A stretch of DNA of 62,759 bases, the filler included, from Dugesia japonica (Eukaryota): NCBI GenBank assembly GCA_001938525.1. It is 5 parts of 5 records of this genome, joined end to end, with 100 filler letters (N's around TTAATTAATTAA, not from the genome) between each part and the next. Parts side by side here need not be neighbours in the genome. Positions count along the whole stretch, not along the records: positions 1 to 14,799 come from MQRL01597883.1; 4 more parts are not named here. One strand, given 5' to 3'. A program made the translations under genes and the position numbers. Shown piece by piece: positions 545-62,400 of the stretch (its first letter is position 1; the number at the start of each line of letters is the position of its first letter). A model generated the notes under the pieces. It searched no databases. It saw nothing but the letters and a program-made list of their open reading frames with translations, and was not told where the DNA came from.

Positions 545-890
545 GATGTAGAACACGTTATCGTCTTTATGAATGACATCTTAATTGCTTCAAAATCATT
601 TGAGCAACACTTAGTTAACATAACAAATATGATGTCGAGATTACAAAAGGCTAACATAAAATTAAAGTCAACAAAATGTAAGTGAGCTAAAGAATAAGTA
701 CTATTCTTAGAATATATAGTATCTTCAAAGGGTCTACAACCAAATCCTGATAAAATAGAAGCAGTGAATTATTTTTTTATACCTAAAACAGTACAACAAT
801 TCCATAATTTCAACGGATTAGTTGGTTATTACAGGCTATTAATAAAACATTTCGTTAAAATATCCGCTTCATTAGTAGAATTAACAAAAG
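545..890 (+). mobile_element. Ty3/Gypsy reverse transcriptase C-terminal fragment (decayed)
   Basis: VFMNDILIASKSFEQHL...KCK...FLEYIVSSKGLQPNPDKIEAV...GLVGYYR...ISASLVELTK; YxDD-like motif degraded to FMND; cut off at 890 by the TGTTGGGG element. Confidence 0.85.
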
Positions 891-1161
891 TGTTGGGGTG
901 AAACGCGCAGTTAAGGAAGAAAAATACAGACCGAAGGTCAAAACTCAGAAATAATGTGGGGAAAGCTTGAACGGCAAATGAACCAGAATACATAGCGAAT
1001 TAGATAAAATTATGGCAGTTATGTTGAAGAAAAGTCAAGGGGAAAATGTATGACAGAAAGAAAACCTCAAACGGAATAAATTCGATATCGATCATTCATG
1101 TTAATTAAGGAAAAATAGAATTTATCATGAAAAAACAGGAAAATTACTATTAAGAAAAAGT

Positions 1162-1198
1162 CAATTCCTGACGAAGACAAGGTCGAAATATCGAATTG
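1162..1198 (+). ncRNA. Minimal type I hammerhead ribozyme (Penelope-like element type)
   Basis: CAATTC-CTGACGA-A-GAC(AAG)GTC-GAAA-TATC-GAATTG: stem I CAATTC/GAATTG, core CUGANGA and GAAA, 3-bp stem II, loopless palindromic stem III, predicted AUC cleavage after 1192. Confidence 0.8.
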
Positions 1199-1397
1199 TT
1201 ATCCAATATCAATAATTTTGATTTGATCTAAGCTTTTATATTATATGAATTAAGAAAATAATTAATTAGTAAAGAAATATTAATTAATTCTATCAGAAAA
1301 TAAATTAAAATTAGTCAAAAATTCGTTTTTTACAAATAACTTTGCTCAGGAAAATCGCAGAAGCTGGTAATAAGAAAAACTGAAAAAGAAAAGTACC

Positions 1398-1636
1398 TGG
1401 GCAATAGGATTTCTGCAAGGGTTCAAAGATTGGGCCAATAAGGTGTTAAGAAAAGAAAATGAAACAAAGACCCGAGCATCACATGGTGATTTAAAAATAG
1501 CGGCCAATAGGAGTTCTAAAACTCTATGGAAAAAATTTGGAAATTAGCACCAGAGCCAATGAAAAGTAAGAAATTTGAATCAAAAATAGTAACCAATGGC
1601 GATGATGCCGAGTTGCATCAGAAAATCCTATATAAA
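1398..1636 (+). promoter_or_regulatory. Pol II promoter of element copy A: CCAAT-box cluster plus TATA box
   Basis: GGCAATAGG (~1399), GGCCAATAAGG (~1433), GGCCAATAGG (~1502), GCCAATG (~1555), ACCAATGG (~1592), then TATATAAA at 1629-1636. Confidence 0.7.
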
Positions 1637-3463
1637 CCCCCCTAAATTCAGAAGAAAAAACTAACAATTTTTATTTTTTGGTATTACGCCAATACGATAC
1701 AAATTTAGTAACCTACTTTGCAGAAAAACCTACTAGAAAATTTTGTCAACTCTTACAGCTCGTAAGATCACGTTTTTTCAAATTATAAATTAACTGTGTC
1801 TATTTCGAATTATAGCTGAAGAATAATTATCAAGTAAACGCGGAAGGTTGCACGAGAATAATCCACATCTAAATCGAGAATCAGTCTGCTTTTCTGAAAA
1901 TTAACCGCTGCATAGAACCCTAAATTAAATCAGCAAGTATTTTAATTGTTCATATCAATGTTTAATAGTGAATGTAATATGTTAATAATGAATTATAATT
2001 GTGACTATTGATAATTAAATATAACGTACCTGATGTGATTTTAATTTTAATTTTTAAAAAATTGATCCATTATTCAGAGTATTATTGATAAATTATTCAT
2101 TGATTTATTTACGAAATTAGGCTTTATTTCAGGAAGGAAACATGCTAAATTAAGAAATTCCCTATATCAGTTATTATTTTTTAACTCTCATAACATATAT
2201 TACTTGTCCCTTATATCTGACACACTATGTCGACATAAATGTCCTATTGCACACACACCATCTAACATGACCGAACAACTATAAAAATGAGGTGTAGAAT
2301 ACTCAGTATTCACAAGAGCCGACAAACAGAACCCGCAATGCATGCATGTCTGTCTGACATCTCCAAATCAGTGTGCGTATGCTCATTGTGATACCAGAAC
2401 GACCCGTGAGTCATCGCGATGTAATTACAATTCGAAAAATGGAAATTATTCTTATCTCTAACAGTTAGAATATCGTCGTCCCGATTGGCTTGTATTATTG
2501 TTGCTCTATTAGAATAGAAACAGAGACCGTTTCATATTTCATTAAAATAAGATAAGGCTTCGATCAAAACAAAACAAAATTTATTTGTAAAACAAGTTCA
2601 AATTTTCGACAATATTAAACCGTTTCATATCTTTAGATTTGGAGTGGCATAGCCTACTCCACCAAGTAAAACGATAGCTGCACATTGGAAACGTTCTTCG
2701 ACCGAGATATGAATCCTGTAACTTAGAGGAAAAATCTACACTTCAATCTACTCTTATATGAACGTGTAAGCGGAGGACCCATTTGCTTTGACTACTTTTG
2801 TAAAGGAACAATTGGACTTATTCCACTTTGCGAAATCCAATAGACATGGTTAACCAGTTCTGATGATAACCACACTGAATAAAATGACCTCGAATTTAAT
2901 GCTATTTTACTTACGCTGATTATTGACAAACATTTTGTCATGTTTATTTTGGTTTTTTAATAATAACTATTAACCTAAGGTTATTTATTCTTTTGTTTAT
3001 TAAAAAATCAATGTTAATTTTATTACATTTTTTTATTAACTTTTTGATCTCTTACTTATTATGATCCCCAATATTATTGACAAGAGGTGGGCTAACTATG
3101 GCCAAAGACTAAAATGTACACTCTCAAAAATATTTTGTCATTATAATTGTGATCGTTTAGTACAGTCAAAGTGTTCTTAATGCAAACATCAGCTCAACTA
3201 AAGTGGTGCTCAATTTTTTTATTTTTTACATTTCAAAACCGAAATCGTTTATCACTCTTAGCAACCTTAGCATGAGGTTAATACTTTTGATTTTAACCAC
3301 GGCTACCATTATATTAATCAGCGTTATTATTACTATTATGAACATTAACATTAATATTACGATAAAATGAAGGTACTAGTAAATCTATTTTATAATTGAT
3401 GGGATTAAGAACCTCATCGTGATATTAAGAGGAGTTGATGTTGTACTTTATATTGTCTAGGGT

Positions 3464-3658
3464 ATGCCAGGAGAATAAAGGGATACTCTGCGCCTCATAC
3501 GGAAGCAACGTAGAACAGTCAGATTGTGACAATTATTGGCACACATTTTGTCACATGGTAAGGTTGAGCATCACGACGAAACGGATTTGCAATGTTTCGC
3601 CGAGTGTTTCCCACTAAAATTGGACGTGGATCTAGACAAAGAATCCAAACCAGCGTAA
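3464..3658 (+). pseudogene. Cassette ORF-a, copy A (DETDLxCFAExFP protein), two in-frame stops
   Basis: Acceptor TTGTCTAG at 3460; MPGE*RDTLRLIRKQRRTVRL*QLLAHILSHGKVEHHDETDLQCFAECFPLKLDVDLDKESKPA*; homologous to 16544-16729; AATAAA at ~3698. Confidence 0.7.
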
Positions 3659-3811
3659 CAAAAAAAATAATAATAACTCATTTGTTTGTCTCATTTAAAT
3701 AAAATTTAATTAGATTTTTTTATCCATTTATGCCCATAAGGCTAAAATTAAACAATTCCTTCTTTTTCATATTCATGTGTTATAAATTCGATATTATTAC
3801 AGGATTAAAGA

Positions 3812-4099
3812 ATGGACTATAAATGGGAAACCCTTTATGATCGGCGAACCGACCGGTCGATTTTTAAAAGGTATAAGAACACCCATGGCCGTAACGATGG
3901 GGTGTTCGCGGATTATACCAATTTTTCAGAAAAAGATGCCGAGAATGAAAGAGAATGGGACGCGGTCGAGCGGCACGCGTATTACGAGTGGACTGGCCAG
4001 AAAGATCCAGAGAAGTGCTTCACACAGCCACAGCGTTTTCCCCAATTAACACCGAGGAATTCAGCACTATCAGTGACTGGAGAGAAGGCCCGTCAGTGA
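3812..4099 (+). CDS. Cassette ORF-b, copy A (hypothetical 95-aa protein)
   Basis: Acceptor TTACAG at 3802; WETLYDRRTDRSIFKRYKNTHGRNDGV aligns with WERIIDRRTRHIIFRRYRNPHNRDAGI at ~16866; AATAAA at 4272. Confidence 0.65.
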   Translation: MDYKWETLYDRRTDRSIFKRYKNTHGRNDGVFADYTNFSEKDAENEREWDAVERHAYYEWTGQKDPEKCFTQPQRFPQLTPRNSALSVTGEKARQ

Positions 4100-4428
4100 T
4101 CCCAGTCTCGGCGGCTCACCATCCACCCTTCGCTATCTTGAGAACGTCGATCGGCGACACGTTATGGGATCTACGTAATACAGGGAGTGGTGCTCACAAC
4201 GAAAATGCCGATGTTATAGGCAATAATAACTCTTGATCATCTTTCTTATCTCGTGTCATCATTTTAGTGTTAATAAATTGTAGGAATCAGGATTGTTACA
4301 AATATTTCTTAATCTGATTTTTAGCATGCGTTAGTAAAACATCTGTTATATGATTTATACAAAATTCTGTTTAAGCAATGTTTCACTATACATTAAATAG
4401 TATGATTTAATAATATCTATTCTTTCAG

Positions 4429-4773
4429 TGCATTCGTCGCTAAATAGAATCCCCGCGCCAACTAAGAAAGTACGTGAGACTAGCGAAGACCAGACTAGCG
4501 AAGATGACCTGGGACCTCTATCGCCTCACCAAACGTAGATGGAAGACCGACACAGCAAACGCCAATAGCAAAGTGGGTCGATACAAGAGGAAATGCCCAG
4601 CTTTTAAAAAGGAGGTTGAGACCTTTCATGTCCAGGAGAGAGTCTGGAAGACTCAAGTAGAATCTTTCGCGGAGATTATCCGGTCCCTCCATGACCGTGA
4701 AAATAAACTGGTGTCGGACATCTTACTACTTCGTAAGGCCATACCTCTTGAACCTTTTAAAGTTGATAAATAA
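4429..4773 (+). pseudogene. Cassette ORF-c, copy A (coiled-coil-like DREN protein), frameshifted by a short tandem duplication
   Basis: Acceptor TTTCAG at 4428, then TG CAT TCG...; HSSLNRIPAPTKK...TWDLYRLTKRRWKT...QERVWKTQVES...DRENKLV; homologous to 17402-17758; AATAAA at 4817. Confidence 0.7.
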
Positions 4774-4923
4774 CCAGACATCGCGGTCTTGAGGCTTATT
4801 ATTTTGGTTAATTATAAATAAACAATACTTTAGGGTTAATAACTTTTATATCTCCATTCATTTAATTAATTAATAACTCATATTCTAAGAGAAATAAATT
4901 ATCTAATTGTGCATCTTGTTTAG

Positions 4924-5190
4924 TGCCACGTATTACATTCCCCAACAGTATAAGAAGCTGCCATAGAATAATCCGGCGACTTCTATTAGAACGGCACCAC
5001 AAACGCCAGACCGAGCGTGCTTTGTTGAAGCATCTGGCACAAAGGAATAAGCTGATTAAGAAGCTAAAAAAAACAACTTCTCCAAAACAAAAAAAACTTT
5101 CTAAAACTGTATATCTCAGATTTGTCCCGCCAATTAGGCAATGCGTCGTGGCTTAACTGGGAAATTAACGATGACACCGCGTCATTTAAC
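4924..5190 (+). pseudogene. Cassette ORF-d, copy A (basic FPNSxRxCHRI protein), internally deleted
   Basis: Acceptor GTTTAG at 4923, then TG CCA CGT; PRITFPNSIRSCHRIIRRLLLERHHKRQTERALLKHLAQRNKLIKKL aligns with the 17883 ORF; AATAAA at 5253. Confidence 0.7.
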
Positions 5191-6785
5191 TTTATTCCTG
5201 AGGAGCCGACCCAGTGGTTAGACCCCGGGGCTCTGGAGGAGATGTAATATAGAATAAAATACTTCTTAATAATAGTGTTTTCGTGTATTTATTTACTGAT
5301 TGAAGTAATAGGGAAATAAATAGGAACCCAAACCAAAGGTGTATGAGTGTGAACCTCAAATAAATTTTGGAGGTCAACCACTCTAAACTGAATATCTAAT
5401 CTAGGGACATTAGATTTAAATTCTTGAAGGGGTACCCTTGAGGGCCACTTTTCCCCGGTCAGCATTCTTTTCAACATCAACTCAGGATTAACACTACTGA
5501 ATTCGAACCCACCACTGAATATTCAAAAAAAATTTTACCCGATTTTAACATTACAGTGCGTATCTATTAGATAGAGGATTTAACTACGAGTAAGAATAAC
5601 ACGGTTAAAAATTCTCAAACCTTATCCCTATAAAAATAAATTGAAAAACAAGTGATTAATATTAGTCGCTCCCCTGAAGAACATTAAAATTCAAAGTTAA
5701 CACATAAATTTATAAATCATCATATGAAATTTAAATTTAAAACATTAAAATTGTAATAAATTAATTGTAATTATTAACTTACTCATCCTGAATTTCATTC
5801 AACATTAAGTAAAAATCGACAAATTAAATATAAAAATATTAAAAATAAAAATATAAACTTATTCTTATATAATTTTAAAATAATTTAAAACAAGAATGGG
5901 TGCAAAATTCAAATTTGATATTAATTACCTTAAATTTAAAAATAAATCAGTAAAAATTTAAACTAGGCATAAAATACGAGCAAAATTTACGTAATTGCAC
6001 ACATTTTCATCACCGCCTAAACACATTGAAAATTTACTAACCAAATACATCATCAGCTGAACTCAGCTGATTCGCTGGCGAGAAGGGAGACTTCTATTCC
6101 AGTGCGCAACTATCTCCTTACTATTTTTAATGACAAGAATATCATAGAGATTTCTTTTGGAAATTATTCCACAATAATTGTATTCGTGTTTGAGTTTAAC
6201 TTGTCTTACAATATAAACTAAATTTTTGCTGCCTTCAAAATTACAGTAGTACAACAAACGGACTCTATCTCTGCTTACTACGTTAAAGGCAACATTTTCA
6301 AAATCTTTAATCCTTATGTATTCACTTCCTTCAACTGTTTTTAGAGTTTAAATGATGCATCTTTGATAGTGTCAGTTTGAAAGATTTACTTTTACATAAA
6401 TTAAAGTAGAAATGAAGATAATTCTTTTCACAAATAAGACTTTATTGAAAAACTGACATGTTGATATATTGTTTTTTGTTTCGTGTAAATTTTAAAAATA
6501 TTCATTTTAAATGTTGGGTAATTGAGTAATTTTGAAAGTATATTTAAGGTATTTTGACAATTTTAACATAAAATTGGAGAATTTAGGAATTTAATTTATT
6601 AAAGTTGGGTATTATGGTGTTTTATAATTTTCTCGAGTATTATTTCTTTAATATTTATAAGAAACATTTGAAGTAAAATTAATTTTAAATATTGTTTTAA
6701 TTTTATTATACTTTGAATATTGTGTAAACGTAATTGTCAATAGTGGAATTTTTGAATTAGCGCGAATTGTAAACTTTCACTGAAA

Positions 6786-13639: not shown

Positions 13640-14340
13640 TACATGATAAGGCTAAAAAGTCCTTAGACTCTACCAGAAATATTAAAGATATTTAAATAAA
13701 ATTTTGCCCGTAAAATAATAATTATATATAGGTATGAAAAGTACGATTTCTTTTAATATGCTAATTTTTGTTTGCACTGGATTAAAATAATTCAAAAGAA
13801 AAGTTCAATAATGTTGAATTTCGCAGTGTGATCCGATTTTTACTTATCAAGAGAGCTGGTAAGAAGGAAATTATCAATCAAGGTATTTAGTGAAGAAGCC
13901 CCATCTAAGGCCACCATTTATAACTAGATTCGAGAATTTTCATCTGGTTGAATAAGAGTTTTCAATGCAACCAAATGTGGAAGACCTATGGAAATTAGTG
14001 AAGAAATGACTAAAAATTTGAAATATATTGGGACAAATGAACGAAATATTACTCAAATGCAGCTATCTGAGAGATTAAATGTATGCAAGAGAACCATCAA
14101 GCTACTTCTAAAGCAAATGAGAATCCGAAAGTTGTGGAGCAGGTTCGTGGCAAGACTTTTAACAGCTGAGATGATGACCAGACGCAAAATAGCTTGTGAA
14201 AGGAATTTTCGTCTTGTGGATGTATTCAGACATAATTTTTTGTCTAATATAATAAATACAGACGAGACGCCATTGAGTCTCTACCTTTCTTACTCTAAAA
14301 GAGAATCAAAGGAATAGATTTTCAAAAATGAGCAGCCATC
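13640..14340 (+). mobile_element. Mariner transposase 5' remnant
   Basis: EFRSVIRFLLIK...VFSEEAPSKATIYN...GRP...KLWSRFVARLLT...INTDETPLSLY: mariner HTH, WVP-like linker and first catalytic D; stops and frameshifts; truncated. Confidence 0.85.
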
Positions 14341-16055: not shown

Positions 16056-16543
16056 AATATTCTTGATGTTATTAATGCGAATATTATGTGGAGATGGATA
16101 GTAGTATTACCACTTATGTTATTATCATGGCTATCATTCTCATTAGGATTATTATTAATATTATTATCGTTATTATGATTACCATTACTGTTATTAATAG
16201 TGACGGTATTAACCGGAATAACATTAGAACATTTAACGTTGATAACCCCTTTATCCTCGTGTTAGTATTAAAATATTTGTCTTGCTGCTGGGCGTAAGGG
16301 TGATGGCATTATAATTGGGGAATAGTATTACCCTTGAACTAATTATAACCATTAATTCTAATCTTAATCTCCACTACAATGCTGTTACGAGCAACCACAT
16401 ATTATTAGGTGACTTTCTGTCAGCATTATCGCCACCACAACAAGTGAAGTCCCCATCATAGTCTCGGAATATAACCCCCAAATCACTAAAACCTTTGAAA
16501 TTCCGTTATTGCATACTAATGCTAAATCTGATTTAGGTATTCT

Positions 16544-16729
16544 ATGTCCGATATCTTGACAAAGACACTCCTGATAATTCATCAAGACCGCGAACGAACT
16601 CGCAGACGCAAATTGATTGGACATCTTATAGCACCAAGCCTTATGATGCATTCCGACGAAACTGATTTAAGTTGCTTCGCAGAGATGTTTCCGTTTCCAA
16701 CGAAAGTAGACATAAATGAGGAATGGTGA
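16544..16729 (+). CDS. Cassette ORF-a, copy B (intact, 61 aa)
   Basis: Acceptor ATTTAG at 16536; ...HSDETDLSCFAEMFPFP; AATAAA at 16759. Confidence 0.7.
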   Translation: MSDILTKTLLIIHQDRERTRRRKLIGHLIAPSLMMHSDETDLSCFAEMFPFPTKVDINEEW

Positions 16730-16853
16730 CCTTTTCGACAATGCAATTTGTTTAGTTAAATAAAAAAATAAGCCTGAGTAAATCTCTAATTCAATTTTTT
16801 CGTATATTGATGTATAGACTAGCACCTTAAATTAAATCAATTTTGTGTTACAG

Positions 16854-17205
16854 GATTGAATTCATTTGGGAGAGAATTATAGACAGGCGAACCCGCCATA
16901 TCATCTTTCGACGGTATAGGAATCCGCATAACCGTGACGCGGGTATTTTGTCTGATCGATTAACCTACCCCCAGTCGAGGCCATGGTAGCCAGAATACAG
17001 GACTTTAGTGAGCAACAAAATTACCAAAGCTGAACGGGGCCTGACCGGAGCCTCGTGACTTCATTCCATTACCAATCTCCAACCCCACCACAAGCGGTGC
17101 AGACGTTTATTAACAACTTACCATGGGGGGTAAGAGAACCATCTGGTGCTGAGGATTCTGAGAATACCGCACCCGTAATTGACTCGGCACCCACCCAATA
17201 GTGAT
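16854..17205 (+). pseudogene. Cassette ORF-b, copy B (disrupted)
   Basis: Acceptor TTACAG at 16853; IEFIWERIIDRRTRHIIFRRYRNPHNRDAGILSD; AATAAA at 17225. Confidence 0.6.
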
Positions 17206-17401
17206 CCATCTTATTTTTAGTTTCAATAAAATATAAAGTTGTTTTCCAGACTCATAACAAAATCTCTTTCTTGTAAAAGTATTCTCGTTTTAAGGATAAA
17301 AGTAATGGCGGATGAATGTTCACTGGGTAACATCAGGTGTAAGTGGTCGATGCAATTCACCAAATCTTTGTATAGTATTTTATGAATTTCGTTTATTCTA
17401 G

Positions 17402-17758
17402 TGCACTCATCATTGAATCGCGCTACGGCCCCAACCAAGAAAATGAGAGCTTTCAGTGATGAAACTGAAATCACTTGGGATCTCCATAGGTTGGCCAAGC
17501 GACGTTGGGAAGCTGATGTTGCATTCATTGATGCCAAAGTTCGGCGCTTTAAAGAAGTGCCTGGCCTTTAAAGTCGAAGCCGAGGCATCCCATTAGCAAG
17601 AAAGGGTTTGGAAAGCCCAATTGGAATCCCTTACCCTCATTTTCCGGTCCTACCAAGACCGAGAGAATAAACTGGTCGGTGAAATTATGAATTTAAGAAA
17701 AATCATGCCACTGACACCACTTATGGTGGACAAGGGAGTCCAGACCTCTCGTCTGTAA
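17402..17758 (+). pseudogene. Cassette ORF-c, copy B (one frameshift, one stop)
   Basis: Acceptor TTCTAG at 17401, then TG CAC; HSSLNRATAPTKKMRAFSDETEITWDLHRLAKRRWEAD...QERVWKAQLES...DRENKLVGEIMNLRK. Confidence 0.7.
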
Positions 17759-17882
17759 ACCTTGTTTAAAAACGGTTTAATTAAATTTTCTTTTGTGTTC
17801 ATTTTCGTCTAAATTGTTCTCACCTTACATTTAATTAACATCATAAATGAAAAATGAATGTCATTAGTGTCCTTTTATTTAG

Positions 17883-18199
17883 TACCTCAAATTATTTTTC
17901 CTAATAGCCTACGACGATGTCACAGAATAATGCGCCGTCTTTTAGTAGAGAGGCACCTTAAACGAAAAGCAGACAGGGCACTCTTTAAGCATCTTGACCG
18001 GCGAAACAAACTCATAAAAAATCTCGATCTGATTGTTAAAACACAGAGCGAACTGGCTGTTCAAACCAAAGCTCTCGAAAACGAAACTAAGCAATTGCTC
18101 CAACGAAAAATAGATTTTTTAAAGCAATACATTTCAGATCTCTCTCGCCAACTTGGCAACCGATCCAGCCCAGTAATTAGGCCCTGGCGCTTTGGATGA
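17883..18199 (+). CDS. Cassette ORF-d, copy B (open, ~105 aa)
   Basis: Acceptor ATTTAG at 17882; PQIIFPNSLRRCHRIMRRLLVERHLKRKADRALFKHLDRRNKLIK...YISDLSRQLGN. Confidence 0.7.
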
Positions 18200-19139
18200 G
18201 ATATAAATGTTATAATAATAGACGTTTTAAAATGATGTCTTGTTTGAGTTATTTAAGGGAAAATAATGAACCCAAATTAAAGGTGTACGAGTGTGCACCT
18301 CCCAAAAAGTAGGAGGTCAACCACTCTACGCTGAATACCAAAACTAGTGGCTTTAGGTCAAATTCTTGAAAGGGTCCCCTGAGGGCTGTTTTTTCCCCAG
18401 CCAACCGTATTTCGATACCCAATTCAGGTGGAATCTCAACAAATGTTATTATTAAATATCAGAAAATATTGTTTTGAAATTTAAAATTTTTTTGCGATGT
18501 AATTTTTACATAATAATTTGTTTAAAAGATGACGTCATAATGTGCATAAGTGATCAGGAAAAGTTTCCAGTAATCAAAAGTGCACCGCGACTTCAGGAGG
18601 GTTAGGAAACATTGTTATAGACATATTATTTGTCAATTTAGTAGTAAATAATTGCATTTTATGGATAACCTATTTTTAAATTAAATTTAAATGGATTCAA
18701 TTAAAACAATAAAATAGATATAAAAAATTGGTTTTAAAGCACTAAATCTGATGTTATAGATGCAAATAATTTTATATATGCAAAATTAACCATAAATGTA
18801 TGTATGTGTGTATGGTTTAAGGATATCTCTTGTATACACCAACTCTTCTGTTTAGCTCGTTTTTAAACTATTATTCTTCTCTTCCAAAGGATTTTAACGT
18901 CGTTTGATGTCAAAACTGACTTCTTTACGCCATACACTATCCACCTTTTCATAAGACTTAATTTTTGAGCTTATAAATCCAGATATAGTCATTTTTGTCA
19001 ATTTAATTTGATTTATTTGTGTTGCGTAAAACTTAATAAAAAATCAAATAAGTCAAAAAATGTATTTACGCAATTTCAAATCGATCAGTTCGTCCATAAT
19101 CAGAATAGTTAAAAGAAATCCCAATCATTTTATATATAA

Positions 19140-23811: not shown

Positions 23812-24467
23812 TGTTGGGGTTTCATATGGGTTTTACGTTTTACTTCTACGGTCTGTTTCTGTAGAACCCCACCAAGAATTTAATCTAGCGTCCCTTTGCT
23901 AGATCTTCGGAATAAAACCGATGACTCACAAACCGTAGTTGGAGTGCTTGTCCGCATTTCTTTAGATTCGGGTTTAACAGTTCCCCTTATTACTAAACTT
24001 ATCAAGATAAGAGCATAACAAAATCTTTGGATATATAACATTTATTTATTAATAAAATTGATGCTGAAAGGTTAGCCGAAGATTCTTCATTAAAGCCGCT
24101 TCATCGTCGGCATCATTCCAGTGATTTATCGCCTGCTAGCTATGAATTTCTGAATTGTGTAAGGAATGCCATCTTACGGAAGAGTCGGTTTGCAGTGGCA
24201 TTCGCAAAGGCTATCTGTTTTTTGCAGACGATATATATTTGCTTAATTAGTTGATTTTTTCTTTGCATATGGCACAGGAAAATTTTTTGTCGAGGTTTAT
24301 AATAATGTCTTTCCATGCGCAATCCGCGTAGTAGACAATAGCAATTATGCATTGATCGTGACAGCCACTGATTATACACTAAAAAAAGAAGAAGATTAAC
24401 TGGTGATTCTGCAGGTAAGATGAAAAGTTAATTTCAATGTATAACATTTATTTTAATAACAAAATTT
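23812..24467 (-). mobile_element. Copy C (3' end) of the multi-cassette element
   Basis: End reads ...GAAACCCCAACA on the minus strand (inverse of copy A's TGTTGGGG start); the 3' block CCCC..CAAGAATTT.AATCTA..GTCCCT...TAGAT is shared with copy A; cut by a linker. Confidence 0.7.
24140..24378 (-). pseudogene. Cassette ORF-d homologue, copy C
   Basis: Acceptor TTTTTTAG, then TG TAT; SRSMHNCYCLLRGLRMERHYYK...HMQRKNQLIKQI aligns with ORF-d. Confidence 0.6.
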
Positions 24468-26558: not shown

Positions 26559-27758
26559 CGAGGGTGAGTCAAAAAATAATAGGATAAATAATGTATGAAC
26601 CTTCTTCATCAAGACACTTGTATCCGATGATTCCACTTTTTTAGACCATCTCTGAAAAAACAGGATCCTTAGATTTGAACCAATTCAGAACTACTTTGGT
26701 GTCATAATTTATAGATTTCCATCTTATTCCTTTGATGNNNNNNNNNNNNNNNNNNNNNNNNNNNNNNNNNNNNNNNNNNNNNNNNNNNNNNNNNNNNNNN
26801 NNNNNNNNNNNNNNNNNNNNNNNNNNNNNNNNNNNNNNNNNNNNNNNNNNNNNNNNNNNNNNNNNNNNNNNNNNNNNNNNNNNNNNNNNNNNNNNTGAGT
26901 TTTTCAGGGTGTTTTTCCGGATTGCAGCCTTCAATTTTTCCAACACTGTTACATAATAAGTTGACGTGACTGCCTTTTTTTCTTTCAAAAAGCCAACGAG
27001 GATAACTCTTCCAGTCTCACAGAAAACCATGGCCATAACTTTCTTGACTGACCTCTTGGATTTGAATTTAACGGGTTCTGCATTCCCCTTTAGTAACCAC
27101 TGCTTTGATTGTAATTTTGATTCAGGATTTTATTAATAGATCCATGCCTTATCTCCAGTTGTGATTCTATGAAAAAGATTTTGTGTATCCATTTGAATTC
27201 TGGTAAAAAATGACATGACCGTGCTAAAAGCTTTGTAGTCCAAAATGATCATTAGATATAGCATGAACTACTCCATGAGAAATCTCCAAATTCCTAGCTA
27301 TCTTATTAATAGTAATTCGCCTATTCTGGTCCAACAATAACTGAACTTTGGATATTATTTCAATATTGGTCGATGTTGACGTGCGTTCTGGGCGTTGGTT
27401 ATTGTTGAGCTCCTCTGGGTCTTCTTTGAAACGCTTAATCTACTCATAAATTAAACTCAGATTTGAAGAATCATTCATATAAACTTTTTGCAATGCATCA
27501 ATAATTTATGCGCTACTTCATTCAAGTTTAACCAAGAATTTGATGTTCGCACGAATTTGAACACGCAAATTTTCCATAATCTAAAAAAGTAGGCTTTGTA
27601 AAATACTAGGTTCCATACAAATATTACGAGAATCATCTCGAAATTTTATAGACAAAATGTTGACATATTATAATTTCAGAAAAATTACAAGCTTTTATAA
27701 TTAAATTGCTACCCACAGAATAACTAATACATTCCTCTTATTTTTTGACTCACCCTCA
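26559..27758 (-). mobile_element. Mariner element with both TIRs and a disrupted transposase
   Basis: TIRs (C/T)GAGGGTGAGTCAAAAAATAA flanked by TA; ATG at 27577; QIRANIKFLVKL, ITTGDKAWIY, KKVMAMVFCETGRVILVGFL. Confidence 0.92.
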
Positions 27759-29657: not shown

Positions 29658-30857
29658 TTTCATTTGAATTTATAAATAAAATAAAATAAATTTAAAATAA
29701 AGATATAAAAATAATACAATTACTTTTGTTTACGAAAGTCACTGAAATCATTCTCAGAATCACTATTATCATTAACAGAGTCAACAAGAACTTAGTAAAT
29801 TTTTTATTTTTATAATTATATTTATAGATATCATGTTAAATTAATTATGTAAAATAATTGTTACTAATTATATGATTGATAAAAATGTTTACAAAGAATN
29901 ATTAATTATCAGTAGAAATGATCTTGAAATATAAGAATTACAATGTTTATAAATCTAAAGTAAGAAAAAGTATTCTGATTTATCAAGTTACATTTTTTTT
30001 TTACAAAAAATAGTAAATAAATTTTTTAAAAAGTTAAGAATAATTGTTGGATTAATATTTAGTAATTAAAATTTATATTGAAAGTTTTATACATGAAATA
30101 AATTACAAATTTTTTAGTAGTTAAGAATAATTATCAAAATTCCATTCTGCAATATAGTTAACCATTTAAAAATTTGTTTTAATGTAGCAATAAAAAATTC
30201 AATTTGATAACAATTTTATTTTTTATATATGGAAAATATTAAATCTATTTTGTTAACCATATGGAAAAATATTTATTTACTATAATTTGTTTATTTTATC
30301 TTTTTCATTTTAAGTTATGACAGAAAGCAATTTTTTTATCAATATTCTGTAATCTGTTCACTTGGAAAATTAAAAAATCTATTTTATAAATAAAGTTTTC
30401 TATTTCTATTTTGAAATTTTTATTTCATTCTTTTACAATTATGTGCTCATACTTTTACTATTTCACATTTTATTATCACATCTCGATAGTNNNNNNNNNN
30501 NNNNNNNNNNNNNNNNNNNNNNNNNNNNNNNNNNNNNNNNNNNNNNNNNNNNNNNNNNNNNNNNNNNNNNNNNNNNNNNNNNNNNNNNNNNNNNNNNNNN
30601 NNNNNNNNNNNNNNNNNNNNNNNNNNNNNNNNNNNNNNNNNNNNNNNNNNNNNNNNNNNNNNNNNNNNNNNNNNNNNNNNNNNNNNNNNNNNNNNNNNNN
30701 NNNNNNNNNNNNNNNNNNNNNNNNNNNNNNNNNNNNNNNNNNNNNNNNNNNNNNNNNNNNNNNNNNNNNNNNNNNNNNNNNNNNNNNNNNTTAAAATAAA
30801 AGCTTCGATCAAAGGTTTGGTTTTTTGATTGATATTTGATAACATAATTGAAAAAGT

Positions 30858-55519: not shown

Positions 55520-56148
55520 ATGAACAATATAATTAATTATGAATAAATTAAAGAAAAATATACAGAAAACTAAAACATGACGTAGTCTATCAAATTGTAG
55601 GATCTAGTGGTAGTGGGAAAACTTTGTATGTCAATTATTGAAATCAAAGTTATTTAAGTCGAAATTTAAAAACATATACTGGCTTAGAGGCGCCGATGAA
55701 GATCATGGATTGGCTAAATCTGAATTTTGTAACATTAAAATTAAAGTTATAAATGGTTTTGATTCTATTTGGAGCAAAAGATTAAGACTAGGTGATGTTA
55801 TTGTTGTTGATGATCTGTATCATGAGGGAAACAAAGAAACAGATTTCAATAATTTATTCACAAAGATATCGAGACATCGTAATGTAACTGTTATATATAT
55901 ATTACTCAAAATCTATTTCATTAAGAAGGTACTCATGGAACTCGTAACTTAAACGTACAGTATTTCTAGCAAGACAAGCTTATCCAAATAACAGACAATT
56001 TCTTATTGAATCTTTTCAAGATGCACCAGAAAAATCACATGTATATCTATTTCTTGACTTTATATAACAATGTCCAGATGATTATAAAGATATATTCAAT
56101 TACAGATATATTTAATCCAAATGGTATCACAACATATAAACAAAATAG
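55520..56148 (+). pseudogene. Polinton FtsK/HerA-type packaging ATPase
   Basis: Walker A VGSSGSGKT (~55597-55623), Walker B VIVVDDL, LFTKISRHRNVTVIYITQNLF, LARQAYP..FL.ESFQDA....YLFLDF; frameshifts. Confidence 0.92.
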
Positions 56149-56432
56149 GTAATTTTTCATAATATTTCAAAGAATGACAAATTTAAAGAAATTTGTATTT
56201 GATCAAATTACTAATGGTGTTGTTAAAAGTCAAAAAATACCTTTTGAGAAGAAATAGTATGTAAAAAAGAAGAAACAATCACATAAGAAACAACATGTAA
56301 ATAAGAAGCAACGAGTAAATAAAAGAAATATGTTAAAAAAACTTGCAAAAAGAAGTGGAAAAAAGCTGCGAATATTGAACAGAAAAAGAAATAAAAAAAA
56401 ATAAATGGTATGTATTATTTTAATAAATAAAG

Positions 56433-56753
56433 ATGAAAATACAAAGTAGCATTCAGTTTTTTACAGCTTTGATTAAATCATCAAAACCTTTTAGAATGAG
56501 AATTTTACAATCATTTCCACCATATGTTATAGATGATTTACTTTATATTATTATAAAGATTGTTCGGGGTAATGTAGATTTGAGTGCAGCCAAAAAGATA
56601 AAATTGAAGAAACATAAAAAAACTTTATTAACTCTTGTAAACACACAAAATAGAAAATCAACAAGACGAGTAATGAACAATCAAGGTGGTGGTTTTATAG
56701 TAGCATTTTTATCAATTGCATTAGCTGAATTAGGCTTAACTCATTTCAAATAA
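56433..56753 (+). CDS. Small basic Polinton virion protein with a C-terminal QGGGF motif and amphipathic helix
   Basis: IVRGNVDLSAAKKIKLKKHKKTL..LV.....RRVMNNQGGGFIVAFLSIAL follows the pattern of the small conserved Maverick/adintovirus ORF downstream of the ATPase. Confidence 0.75.
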   Translation: MKIQSSIQFFTALIKSSKPFRMRILQSFPPYVIDDLLYIIIKIVRGNVDLSAAKKIKLKKHKKTLLTLVNTQNRKSTRRVMNNQGGGFIVAFLSIALAELGLTHFK

Positions 56754-56869
56754 ACAATGGTTGAAATATAACAATAACCTGAACCCAAATGAACAATGTG
56801 TTGATTGCAATCATTACTTAATTTTGACTTGAAATTTGCATCAAATTGTTGTAATGGAGAAATAAATGA

Positions 56870-57120
56870 AGACAATAAAGACGTATCTAAAAACCCTAGC
56901 CAGATTTGGAAGCATAGAAAAATTATGAAAGCAGCTCAAAAATCGAAACGACAGACAAAAAAGTGGTTATATGGACAGCTAGTATATAGTCTAAACAAGT
57001 CAATGTTGAAAACATTTCCGACAAGAGCATATAAAGCATATGGTATTGATGATTTATAGAAAATGTATCTAATAGAAATGGTTTCATATTCAAAACTTCA
57101 TAAAGTTTACAAGCTTTATT
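56870..57120 (+). pseudogene. Polinton retroviral-type integrase, N-terminal remnant
   Basis: KKWLYGQLVYSLNKSMLKTFPTRAYKAYGIDDL*KMYLIEM matches WL..Q..YTLHKP.RK.FPRR...GIDDLWQADLVDM; catalytic core deleted. Confidence 0.82.
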
Positions 57121-57276
57121 TTTGTTATTAATCGTTTGTATTTAATAAATTTTCAAGAGTGTTTCCATTTTAATGAAAGTGAATTAAAAGAATTAACAAT
57201 AATATGTAAAATTATATGAATACAAAAACCAATTTGGATAGTAACAACATAAATAAAATATCAAGACGAAATTCAG

Positions 57277-58322
57277 ATGAAATCAAATAATTTCTTTACT
57301 ATTTTATCTAGTAATTGTAGTCCACTAGTTCATTCAAATAATTTTGCTAGTAATTACATTGTTGAGCTTCAAAATCTAATTAACATGGATGTTAGATGGG
57401 AATTTGCCATGATAAGTTTTGCCTTTATATATTCAGCCATGCCAATTTATAGTCAATCTCGGATTGAATACGAATTATTTCAAGTAATTGAGAAGGACCT
57501 TATACTTGATGTTAACAATAAAGAAAGAAAAGTTCATTTAACTGTTAATAGTAAAGACCAATATAAAAATAATACGGAAACAGTTATAAAATTTTCGAAA
57601 GAAAACATTTCAATTTTTACTAGTGATATTACCTACCACAGTTTATTCTTTGATACTAAGGAAACTTTAAAAAGATTTACATATTTTAGCAATGAATATG
57701 TAAGTGGAAATATTAAATTAACTTTTGATACTACTAAGAATTTTGGGGATAAAACATTTTTTCTAGGCTTTCAACACTTTAAAGACGATGATTTCATTGA
57801 AAAAATAAAAATTAAATATTTTTATCCGATTGTAACTAAACATTCTTTACAATTCAAATCTGAATTGTATATAAAGGATTTAAATCAATTAAATGTCTTT
57901 TTTAAGAAACATCTTCCACAGTTATTTAAAACATTTTCATTAAAGCAAGTTGAAATATTTGAATTCACATTAGCAACTAGATTTAAAAGTGTTAAATTCG
58001 ATAAAATCTTAACAAAAACATTAGGATTTAAAAAATCGCAATATACTCGATTACAATTGAATGATAAAGAAATATTATATAAAAGTAATAAGAAACCTAG
58101 AATATTAAAGTGTTACAATGAAATGTTCATTTATTGTAGTATTGTTGAACCTATTATTGTTTGAGATGTTAATGTTTCCTTATTGAAATCAGTATGGAGA
58201 GAAGAACATGAAAATGATGAGGTAATACAAATAATCGTTGATCATCCAATGTATTTACATTTTTTTCGTCATATATAAACAATATAGAAATTAACATACG
58301 TGATGATATTGGAAAACTAGTA
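57277..58322 (+). pseudogene. Polinton minor capsid (penton) protein
   Basis: FFTILSSNCS....NNFASNYIVELQNLINMDVRWEFAM...MFIYCSIVEPIIV*DVNVSLLKSV...HPMY...INNIEINIRDDIG; stop at 58162 (GGA>TGA) and a later frameshift. Confidence 0.85.
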
Positions 58323-58361
58323 GGACATGGAATAGGACATAGAACAATATTTGAAAAAAGA

Positions 58362-58478
58362 TTTGCGATAAAACTGAATTGTATTTTTGATCGACCATCT
58401 TCACAAGCTGTAATTGAAAATGGTACATTCGAATATGTTTTTCCTATGAATTCAATTTTCGAATCACAAAGCGATGTA
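58362..58478 (+). pseudogene. Polinton major capsid protein, N-terminal remnant
   Basis: CDKTEL / FDRPSSQAVIENGTFEYVFPMNSI matches the CxKSELDLFxxPPTQxxIExGxxxxxxPxxS start of Maverick MCPs. Confidence 0.7.
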
Positions 58479-58509
58479 TTACTAGATGCAAAATTAATGT
58501 TTTATAAAA

Positions 58510-59080
58510 ACATTGTGACTAGTAATATGGGTTTTATAGAAAAACGTCAGGACTAATAGGTTTTTGATAGAAATATCACATGATTAATGTTTTTTTTTCA
58601 AAGAAACATTGTCACTAGTACTATGTTTTTTATAGAAATATTGTCACTAGTTATGTTTTTTAAAGAAAAACTGCATGACTAATATGTTTTTGATAGAAAT
58701 ATTAGATGACTAATATGTTTTTTATAGAAACACTGTGTAGGTAGATAGTAGTACACTAGTATAGAACACAATTAGTAAGCTCCCCCCGTGTGTAAAAATG
58801 ATTACATAACTTTCCTAATGCAAATACCGGAAGACACACATTGGTATGTATTACGTAACTGCTTTTCATATTATCGGATTTTATACATCGATACACATTT
58901 GTGTGTATTACGTAACTGTTTCTCGTATTTTTTGAAAAGTTTAGCGAATTATTGGGTTTTTAATGGACGAGTAAATTTATGTGTATTACATAACATTTGC
59001 TCATATTTTTGAATAGTTTACAGAACTAATTGAATATTCTACAGAATTATTTGAATAGTTCACTGAATTATTTAAAGGTT
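58510..59080. repeat. Degenerate tandem repeat tracts around a candidate Polinton terminus
   Basis: ~30-bp units GACTAATATGTTTTTTATAGAAA (58510-58730), AGTAGT at 58747, repeats of GTGTATTACGTAAC (58845-58995). Confidence 0.6.
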
Positions 59081-60074
59081 TATATTTTCTGGGCGTTTTG
59101 GTAAGAAATTTTCACGTTAAGAGTAATCTTGAATCATTATTTACTCACAAGGATCAATTTCCTATAATTTGTGGTAATACTTTCCTCAGGAATAGTCAAT
59201 TTAGGTCAGTTTTGGACGATTTGGTCAATTATTTACTCGGTTTGGATGATTAAGGTAAATTATTTACTTTGTATGGTTAAACTTGGTTGATCATTTAATC
59301 ACAAGAGTCAATTTTCTATGATTTTTGAGCAAACTCTCGGGTCGGTCTATTTGGGTAGAATTCTTTACAAAATATCGAGGGAAATAGACGAATTTGTTTA
59401 AATAATTCAAAATATTATACTTTGTATAGGAATAAGGGTGTGATTTTCTCAAAATAGGTGAAGAAAATGTCTTTTGATAGAAAATGTTTTGCTGATATGC
59501 TAACCTCAAATCACCAAAGCTAATACTTGATGAAATAAATGAGGTTGGGTGGTGGAAAAAAAATTTCAAAATTGAGAGATTATGCTCAGATCTCTATGCA
59601 CAGATAACAGCTATCGACTCAAATTTGGTATTATTTTACTCAAGAGAAAAACGTGACTGTACAAAGTTAAAATATCGTCTCGGGTAAAATGCTTCTTAAC
59701 TAATATGTATAGCTGACCTCCCAAAATTCGGTCACATTTTTCAAAAACAACAAAAGTACCTCAAAATGTATCGAAATTTATACTATTCGACAGGAAATCT
59801 TATACTAATTAAAATTTTATTAACCTAAAATTAACAATTTTTATTCATAAAAAGTTATAAAGAAACAATTACTTTATTTGTGGATTCCTAGTATCATTAA
59901 AAAATAAAAAAACACACTATGAAAACTTAATAATAAGATAAAGTCATTTTTTAAAGTAAAAGATCTATTTAATAAAAATCTGATCAACCTGTCTATTGTT
60001 TGATTATTGAACTGCTTGAAAATATTGAACAAAGCAATTAATTAATCAATTAAAATTAAATAAATAACAAATCA

Positions 60075-61240
60075 TTGCCTTTACAATTTCTGATTTGATT
60101 CTGATTCGTCTTCCATACAAGATACTGTAAGGTAAACTTTCATTCTGTTTTACCCATACTCGTTTATCGTCTGTGTTTGTTAATGCTACTTTTGAATTAT
60201 TTGAACTATATATTGTGTGGTTTTTTGTAAAAATTCTAAATTGATTTACTGAGACCTTTTGATTATTATTATAACAATCAATGTATGACTGAGGATTTAT
60301 GCCAGTACCTTTAAATATTACACCCTTCGCCTTTATAGAAGTTTTTTTCGCTAAGACTGATCAACCTGTCTATTGTTTGATTATTGAACTGCTTGAAAAT
60401 ATTGAACAAAGCAATTAATTAATTAATTAAAATTAAATAAATAACAAATCATTGCCTTTACAATTTCTGATTTGGTCTCAGGAAAATCCATTTTTTATAC
60501 CTTATGCCTTTGGACTCGTCTTTAAATTTCCCTACAACAGAATTCAAGTCATTATTGAAAAGTGGATGNNNNNNNNNNNNNNNNNNNNNNNNNNNNNNNN
60601 NNNNNNNNNNNNNNNNNNGAATTCAAGTCATTATTGAAAAGTGGATGATTTTTAGCATAATTTGATGTGTCAAGAAGATTATCTTGAACCATAAAGTATA
60701 ATAATTTCTCTAATTTAATATCTTTACCTCTAAAAAGAAGCTATCTGTGTAGCCTGCAACAATATTTATACAACATTTCTCTTCCTTACGGTATTTTTGT
60801 AAATCTATATACTGAAGCCGATACATTCTAAGCTTAGATAAATCAAGTACAGATTGCCAAATATAACTCGGACGATCCAAACAAATAACATTTTTATTAA
60901 GTTGAACAGCGATCAGATCTTTATCAATTTTAAATTTTTTCCTAAAACTCGGTTTGGAAGTATAGGTTACCAACTTTTTATCAGATTTAAAAAGACGGAG
61001 ATTCAACAGTATTACCGTAAAGACTATTATTGAGAAGTTTATAATAATTTTTATATAACTTATTTTTACTTTCAAATCTTAATGCAGTATTTCCATCTAC
61101 ATATGCCTTAAAGATATAGTCTAGATCAAGTTTTACAGACCTATAAATTTTAGTCACTTCATCCCCGATTTGTAAAAAAAAACTTTTTAAATTTTGTACC
61201 TGGCACAAATTTTTGTTCAGCAGCAACTGGCAAATCACTT
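60075..61240 (-). pseudogene. Protein-primed DNA polymerase B (pPolB), C-terminal half
   Basis: YKLLNNSLYGNTVE, LDRPSYIWQSVLDLSKLRMY, AGYTDSFF (DTDS motif), AKGV, KVALTNTDDKRVW...SLPY; frameshifts and an internal duplication. Confidence 0.9.
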
Positions 61241-61329
61241 AAATAGTTATGTGTTAAATAGTTAAAAAATTTCCTGTTATAATTACAAATTCTCAAAAAA
61301 GTTCGTAACTTCTTCACACAGTTAGATTG

Positions 61330-62400
61330 CCAAATGTTTTTATTGGTTTTATTTTAGACGGATCAGTTCTAACACCACCCCTGCTAATTATGTGTCCAAG
61401 AAACTTGATTTTGCTTTGAAAAAACTGACACTTTTCTGAACTAATTCTTAGACCAGCCTTCATTATTTCCATCAATACACTTTAAATTACTTCATAGTGT
61501 TGATCTTTATTGTTCGTAAATATTAGGATGTCATCAAAATAAACCATAGCTCCATTGATTCCGCCTACCACTTTTGCCATCATCTCCTGAAATGTCTCTT
61601 GTTCAACTACGATGCTAAATGACATTCTTTTAAGACAATATTGTCCATGTTTCGTTGAAATCGCCGTTTTCTCTAGAGATTCTTATTTGAGCTCTACCTG
61701 ATAGTATGCGTTTTCCAAATCTATTGAACTGAAATATTTTGCTCCATCTAACCTGTCCAGCATTTCATCGATATTAAGCATCAAAAAGGTTTGTGTTTTC
61801 GTAACTGCATTCAGTTGCCTGAAATCCAAATATACTCATTTGTCCTTTTTCCAAACACAGATCAGTGGAGTATTCCATGAAGAGTTGCATTTCCGGATAA
61901 TGTTATTCTCGAAAACGTTTTATATAGCTTCTACAATTTTAGATTGTAAGTTCATTGCTTACCTATATGGTTTTACATTTATTGGTTCATCACTTGTGAT
62001 TATTTTGTGTCTTATCAGATGTGTGCGTCCTACATCCCATTTATCTGCCAAAAAATCATCTTCTTTACTTTCAGTTATTTTCAATGACCGTTGATCCTCT
62101 TTAATGTTCAAGATATTTAAAGCTCTTGTCAATCGCTCTCCATTTTTAGTTTGTCTTCCGAATTTTGCTTTAATATTACAAATGTAATTTTCAACTTTTT
62201 TATTTGCTTTGTTCCCAACTTCTTGCATAAGCTGGTATCCAAAACTCCTCTGCATAGCTAGTCCTCCTATCAGATCTGGTGTTACTCTTTCAGCAACTAA
62301 GAAGGTAATTTCTTTGCAAACTTCATCAATTATCACTCCAATTTTAACTTGTCCAACAATTTCAAGTGTACTATTATTTGCATAACGCAATCATTCTGTA
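61330..62400 (-). mobile_element. Ty3/Gypsy pol fragment (protease end + RT) truncating pPolB
   Basis: DLIGGL, HKIITSDEPINVKPYR, SSWNTPL, LDFRQLN, YFSSIDLENAYYQV, VYFDDILIF, FLGHIISRGGVRTDPSKI. Confidence 0.93.

Follow-up and report, generated by a model that had tools for sequence, protein, structure and literature searches.

A probable splice-made start codon for two small genes of an LTR-like cassette in Dugesia japonica

How does an open reading frame begin when its exon opens with TG directly behind the splice acceptor? The question is raised by a locus in Dugesia japonica (assembly GCA_001938525.1), where the whole stretch of 62,759 nucleotides that was analyzed (the window, filler included) is animal-type DNA, AT-rich with N gaps and many repeats, and holds a cassette of small ORFs three times, in the diverged copies A, B, and C, each of them decayed by stops or frameshifts (Table 1). 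We consider it likely that the start codon of two of these ORFs, ORF-c and ORF-d, is made by splicing, with the last A of a shared leader joined to the TG of the exon to give A/TG, where the slash marks the junction. This model draws on the selection acting on the first codons, a nearly invariant G, a leader that is free of ATG, and a conserved donor that is preceded by A.

Table 1. Features of the cassette copies in the window (a slash marks a putative splice junction)
Feature	Position	Strand	Remarks
Copy A (LTR-like, ~4.6 kb, decayed)	891..5500, right end uncertain ~5495-5515	+	Start at reverse-transcriptase break; 3' end aligns with B and C
TATA box TATATAAA, copy A	1629..1636	+	From sequence; putative promoter
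Putative noncoding leader, ending in A at 1932	1640..1932	+	Without ATG
Putative shared splice donor	1933..1938	+	GC-type in copy A, GT in relatives
ORF-a exon, copy A	3461..3703	+	Acceptor, own ATG 3464, internal stops, AATAAA 3698
ORF-b exon, copy A	3803..4277	+	Acceptor, own ATG 3812, frameshifted, AATAAA 4272
ORF-c exon, copy A	4429..4822	+	TG start, phase 1; frameshift near 4480-4500; stop 4773; AATAAA 4817
ORF-d exon, copy A	4924..5258	+	TG start, phase 1; frameshift near 5065; last stop 5247; AATAAA 5253
Noncoding 3' end of element, conserved	5300..5500	+	Aligns across A, B, and C; run X1 contig depth 3781 in bin 5300-5483
Copy B	16537..18441	+	ORF-a 16537, ORF-b 16854, ORF-c 17402 (TG), ORF-d 17883 (TA); 3' end ...CAACA
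Copy C (ORF-d only)	23812..24380	-	Exon from 24378 (TG), AATAAA 24050, 3' end CCCCAACA
ORF-c exon start, copy A	4429	+	CAG/TG CAT
ORF-c exon start, copy B	17402	+	TAG/TG CAC
ORF-d exon start, copy A	4924	+	TAG/TG CCA
ORF-d exon start, copy B	17883	+	TAG/TA CCT
ORF-d exon start, copy C	24378	-	TAG/TG TAT

Layout of the cassette and its exon starts

All four ORFs of copy A are followed by AATAAA, as are ORF-a and ORF-b of B and ORF-d of C, and inspection of the sequence of copy B found no such signal after its ORF-c or ORF-d. In B, ORF-a (ATG at 16544) is 41.5% identical to its counterpart in A over 53 aa, and ORF-b has ATT at about the place of the ATG in A. Ahead of ORF-a there is an ATT/AAT-rich low-complexity stretch in both A (3270-3400) and B (16060-16260), which reads as Ile-rich or Tyr/His-rich on the plus strand and as Asn-rich on the minus strand, and which may be one more decayed ORF. 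The interval 2133-2900 of copy A contains more acceptor-like sites (2133, 2465, and 2637), GC-richer stretches, and an AATAAA at 2878, which suggests one or two additional decayed genes, and a Pfam search of this interval returned no match. Two very high-copy short repeats are also inserted in A, at 1154-1251 and 2530-2620, with a depth in run X1 of about 400,000-560,000, and more copies of them lie near 30850 and 49650.

The sequence-only reading had pointed to TG right after the acceptor in ORF-c of A and B and in ORF-d of A and C, and this is borne out. TG stands at four of the five ORF-c and ORF-d exon starts in the window, compared with 6.4% of 519 pyrimidine-preceded YAG sites in the same window, an enrichment that represents at most two independent events since the copies of one ORF are homologous. 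Kinship of ORF-c with ORF-d was not detected when 3-row alignments of the two were compared in hhalign (probability 0.3%, E 0.23). The coding frame starts two bases into the exon in all five cases, with ATG absent from the exon start in each, and in ORF-c of copy B the TG frame continues into TWDL, as had been claimed. The exon of ORF-a shows the same type of acceptor in A and in B, followed there by an ATG of its own. A further claim placed the onset of the homology between A and B exactly at the acceptor, which holds approximately: the ungapped identity is 18/40 ahead of the acceptor and 25/40 past it in ORF-c, and 16/40 and 25/40, respectively, in ORF-d.

Selection on the first codons and the TA exception

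Comparison of copies A and B indicates that the codons directly past the TG are under purifying selection. Over the first 13 codons of ORF-c, differences amount to 10 for 10.0 synonymous sites and 4 for 29.0 nonsynonymous sites, and over the first 15 codons of ORF-d they amount to 10.5 for 10.0 and 4.5 for 35.0, so that pS is ~1.0 and pN 0.13-0.16; over 46 codons of ORF-d, pS is 1.01 and pN 0.16. The remaining two frames contain stops at the starts of both ORFs. There is no conserved downstream Met, the first Met of B being Val in A for ORF-c and Ile in A for ORF-d. Purifying selection from the first codons onward, combined with the lack of a conserved downstream Met, argues that translation starts at or before the TG, and it is from this selection that we infer translation of ORF-c and ORF-d from the first bases of their exons.

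The TA at the start of ORF-d in copy B had been recorded as an exception, and it is indeed present, but it is private to B rather than a feature of the family. At position 17884 the relatives of B read G in 759.1 of 787.5 depth (96%; 33 contigs of run X1) and in 159.7 of 159.7 depth (100%; 9 contigs of run X10), figures that apply to ORF-d of the B lineage and not to ORF-c, that include only contigs 80% alike, and in which summed depth does not equal copy number. Because the reference carries A at this position, alignment bias acts against G. Copy B, the bearer of the TA, also has a stop and frameshifts. Inspection of every difference row of 17830-17975 in the public runs found no change of at least 10% at 17881-83, while six of the eight four-fold degenerate third positions within the 20 codons that follow vary by 11 to 60% (X1). 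In four more distant contigs, the loose ends match the same register. A Val or Leu codon lets the base in question drift and a Met codon does not, and the G, near-fixed while four-fold sites vary, behaves as it would in a Met codon. Between A and B, too, the G of TG is retained in both ORFs though synonymous sites are saturated.

These data bear on the idea that the TG is a chance occurrence or a relic, the true starts having been lost from decayed pieces. The stops or frameshifts in all three copies, and the count of only two independent events, speak for it; but the TG has been kept between lineages whose synonymous sites are saturated and in 33 and 9 contigs of relatives, from a background of 6.4%, and we regard this explanation as very improbable.

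Promoter, leader, and assembly of the start codon

The TATA box at 1629 would be the promoter of the cassette, judging by its sequence, and several CCAAT boxes lie upstream of it, at about 1430-1600 in copy A. The 293 bases from 1640 to 1932, limits that were set after the TATA box and the donor were known, contain no ATG compared with 4.4 expected, a lack seen in 0.9% of 5000 shuffles and in 43 of 2102 equal-length stretches of the window. A 54-nt mini-intron (1762-1815, GTAAGA...TTATAG) may be removed from this putative leader. At the donor that follows, five of six intron bases in copy A match the U1 consensus, and the base before the donor is A, with another A at -3 of the codon that would be built. 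The sequence-only reading had identified the leader donor as CAA/GTATTT, with its GT at 1937-38; that site does exist in A and does end its exon in A, but the conserved donor lies four bases upstream, at 1933. In relatives of A (7 contigs of run X1), the entire depth (146.6 of 146.6) has T at 1934, which makes a GT donor at 1933, and likewise C at 1938, for which reason the donor at 1937 was rejected. Among the difference rows listed for these relatives none falls at 1932-33 (611 further rows exist), and the conservation of the A at 1932 is thus only partly shown. Both leader and donor have been identified solely in copy A and close relatives of it, and a search of the window found no homolog of the leader upstream of B or C, with N gaps lying upstream of B.

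In the mechanism that we propose, one TATA promoter would transcribe a row of small genes, each with a splice acceptor and stop of its own, by way of a shared noncoding leader ending in A, and in any one transcript splicing would join this leader to a single gene. Joining the A of the leader to the TG of the exon would build A/TG for ORF-c (1932 to 4429) and for ORF-d (1932 to 4924), with ORF-a and ORF-b supplying an ATG of their own; the predicted N termini are Met-His-Ser-Ser for ORF-c and Met-Pro for ORF-d. The transcription start and both joints are putative, as are the function of the AATAAA signals and the translation of the ORFs. As a consequence, production of the ORF-c and ORF-d proteins would require RNA to which the element's own leader has been spliced, and none would arise from RNA that is unspliced, read through, or trans-spliced to a host leader.

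One alternative is an ordinary phase-1 intron, in which an upstream coding exon would have its own ATG and the N/TG would be an internal codon. Phase-1 introns are common, whereas introns that split a start codon, although they exist in cellular genes, are described as relatively rare (PMC1626468), and the region between 1933 and 4429 offers short ORFs and several donor-like sites (2406, 2421, 2718, 2766, 3379, 3558, 4092, and 4330). However, the near-fixed G would then demand that two unrelated proteins each keep an invariant Met at an internal position. ORF-a and ORF-b each close with a stop and an AATAAA, the donor-like site at 3558 after an ATG in ORF-a is in phase 0 and has no counterpart in the aligned B, and the conserved upstream exon lacks an ATG in A. 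We hold an ordinary intron of this kind to be unlikely, though it is the most credible of the alternatives.

A second alternative is a near-cognate GTG start, either at the genomic GTG of unspliced RNA or at a G/TG formed from a donor ending in G. Every TG exon reads GTG in the genome, and splice donors usually end in G. On the other hand, the same T-rich tract and AG stand before a normal ATG in ORF-a and ORF-b, which identifies the AG as an acceptor, the A precedes the conserved donor in copy A, and an unspliced RNA would hold 33 ATGs in 1933-3460 alone. Even though animals are described as using non-AUG starts (PMC9851317), a GTG start is in our judgment improbable.

The sequence-only reading had allowed the codon to be completed by a common cis-spliced leader or by a trans-spliced one. 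The cis core of this proposal is supported by the selection, the G, the ATG-free leader, and the donor, but the trans option is out of frame. Planarians do trans-splice, flatworm leaders can provide the initiator AUG (PMC12582326, PMC9851317), and the presence of an acceptor at each ORF resembles an operon; yet flatworm leaders are described as ending in a whole AUG (PMC12582326), which, joined at the AG, is in the wrong frame in all five ORF-c and ORF-d exons, with wrong-frame stops after 4, 4, 9, 15, and 43 codons. A noncanonical acceptor ending in TG would be needed, and we give a start codon provided by the host's trans-spliced leader very little credence.

The preferred model, a cis-spliced A/TG, predicts joints that RNA runs X2, X3, and X6 could have contained. 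These runs were aligned to 700-6200, with 6 to 25% of each run covered; depth was zero in the bin 1804-1987 and at most 0.83 in the bins of the ORF-c and ORF-d starts, and no joints appeared at such coverage. For ORF-d of copy B, X3 and X9 gave no records, and X10 gave 23 contigs, several of which cross the intron, with no junction among the loose ends listed, to which 52 further rows belong. The mapping of spliced reads proposed in the sequence-only reading thus yielded neither a joint nor a leader-like loose end, at a coverage near zero where blanks count neither for nor against the joint. The segment 4678-4712 of ORF-c has a match in a related family of far greater abundance (X1 depth 26602 in bin 4564-4747; X3 RNA depth 5.6 and 9.2), which points to the existence of a more active lineage of the cassette. 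In planarians, knock-down of PIWI is described as increasing the RNA of LTR elements (PMC8532177).

The element, its proteins, and known systems

Decayed Ty3/gypsy reverse-transcriptase fragments lie at 515-890 and at about 61300-62400 (minus strand). The first of these belongs to an older element that is interrupted by copy A, which begins with TGTTGGGG at 891, right where the reverse-transcriptase frame ends (890); this frame was not seen to resume past copy A. The 3' end of C, CCCCAACA, is the reverse complement of the first 8 bases of A, and the 3' end of B is CAACA; no single copy has both ends clean. Neither candidate right end of A, near 5495 or 5513, shows a repeat of its left flank (..AAAAG), the exact right end being uncertain. 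By its sequence the element is LTR-like: its termini are inverted over 8 bases across A and C, its promoter has CCAAT and TATA boxes, and its 3' end is conserved. It is most likely, though this is not proven, an isolated LTR of giant size from a planarian Ty3/gypsy element. No TGG primer-binding site was found directly after the 3' ends of A, B, and C, but none is expected for a solo or 3' LTR, so that only a 5' LTR is excluded. Since the analysis revealed neither a target-site duplication nor a primer-binding site nor any gag-pol linked to the element, we do not assign it to the Burro family.

The proteins of the cassette belong, by sequence searches, to no known family. No relatives of ORF-c and ORF-d were found among proteins of near length, of ORF-c among 1.84 billion representatives, of the ORF-d alignment among longer proteins, or of the cassette proteins among metagenome and viral contigs; in the ESM Atlas the best value for ORF-d was 0.76, and ORF-c had no usable match. 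ORF-d also had no Pfam match at the curated cut-off, with weak sub-threshold matches to coiled coils. Its structural model, from a 3-row alignment, is a single helix spanning residues 7-93 (87 residues; mean pLDDT 92.7, pTM 0.49), and the prediction for ORF-d is a long uninterrupted helix whose N-terminal half is basic; it would likely be a dimerizing regulatory protein of the element. A bZIP-like identity is not supported, as no family model with a basic region plus leucine zipper matched. A 101-aa ORF at 37469-37774, charged and coiled-coil-like, showed no match to ORF-c or ORF-d in a search of the window.

A start codon made by splicing is in itself already known. In the available account of Epstein-Barr virus EBNA-LP, promoter exon C2 or W0 is spliced to acceptor W1' to create the AUG (bioRxiv 10.1101/2025.04.23.648900), and, similar to what we propose for the cassette, a single viral promoter drives several ORFs, with more than one poly(A) site in use. 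EBNA-LP, however, is described there as a unit of a herpesvirus in which the choice lies between two acceptors of one exon for one protein, whereas in the cassette a single leader would supply the missing base to two terminal exons that are separate from each other, and the comparison implies no sequence kinship. The env of the springer subclade of Drosophila errantiviruses, in the portion of the report at hand, likewise has a spliced RNA that builds the Met codon over the junction (bioRxiv 10.1101/2023.08.03.551782), and springer is a Ty3/gypsy element. There the split is AU/G ahead of one large env ORF following pol, whereas the cassette would split A/TG ahead of two small ORFs that belong to an array lacking env, gag, and pol.

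Other comparators share single features with the cassette. The MDG1 group has accessory ORFs, sORF1 and sORF2, of ~70-110 aa near the 5' end of the LTR element, along with an internal poly(A) site, but these are described as unspliced (bioRxiv 10.1101/2025.03.14.642691). The giant gypsy elements of planarians, Burro/GYPSM1, have an internal region of up to 25 kb and a total length of >30 kb, with room for LTRs of some kb and with known accessory ORFs; no gene array inside the LTR is described in the available text (PMC6431247). The flatworm spliced leader resembles the cassette in that the start codon comes from another exon, but, as characterized in the sources available, it brings a whole AUG in trans, out of frame at the cassette exons (PMC12582326, PMC9851317). 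Titles and abstract openings gave no published description of the cassette, though the Grohme 2018 Burro paper, bioRxiv supplements, and Repbase may cover genes in LTRs. What appears to be new is the use of one leader by several terminal exons within an LTR-like element; the resolution of the TA exception, the correction of the donor position, and the frame test applied to the spliced leader are new as well.

A broader reading, which we offer tentatively and would put at somewhat short of an even chance, is that of a flatworm retroelement whose terminal repeat holds a whole accessory-gene unit and in which the last A of the leader licenses two regulatory proteins. The unit would have a single promoter and a single ATG-free leader for at least four terminal exons; the licensed proteins would never be made from genomic RNA, and RNA trans-spliced to a host leader would fall out of frame. 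If this is true, the accessory proteins of a transposon are controlled through the choice of splice, in the way of complex viruses, and ORF finders based on ATG would miss such genes, which may be why these have no relatives in databases. It would also point to helical proteins of no known family in an abundant repeat family.

Other mobile-element remnants occur elsewhere in the window. ORF fragments at 55600-61100 look Polinton-like by eye, with stretches resembling a packaging ATPase and DNA polymerase B, and transposase-like fragments at 13952-14317, 26641-27129 (minus strand), and 45097-45519 look mariner-like and IS1595/Merlin-like by eye.
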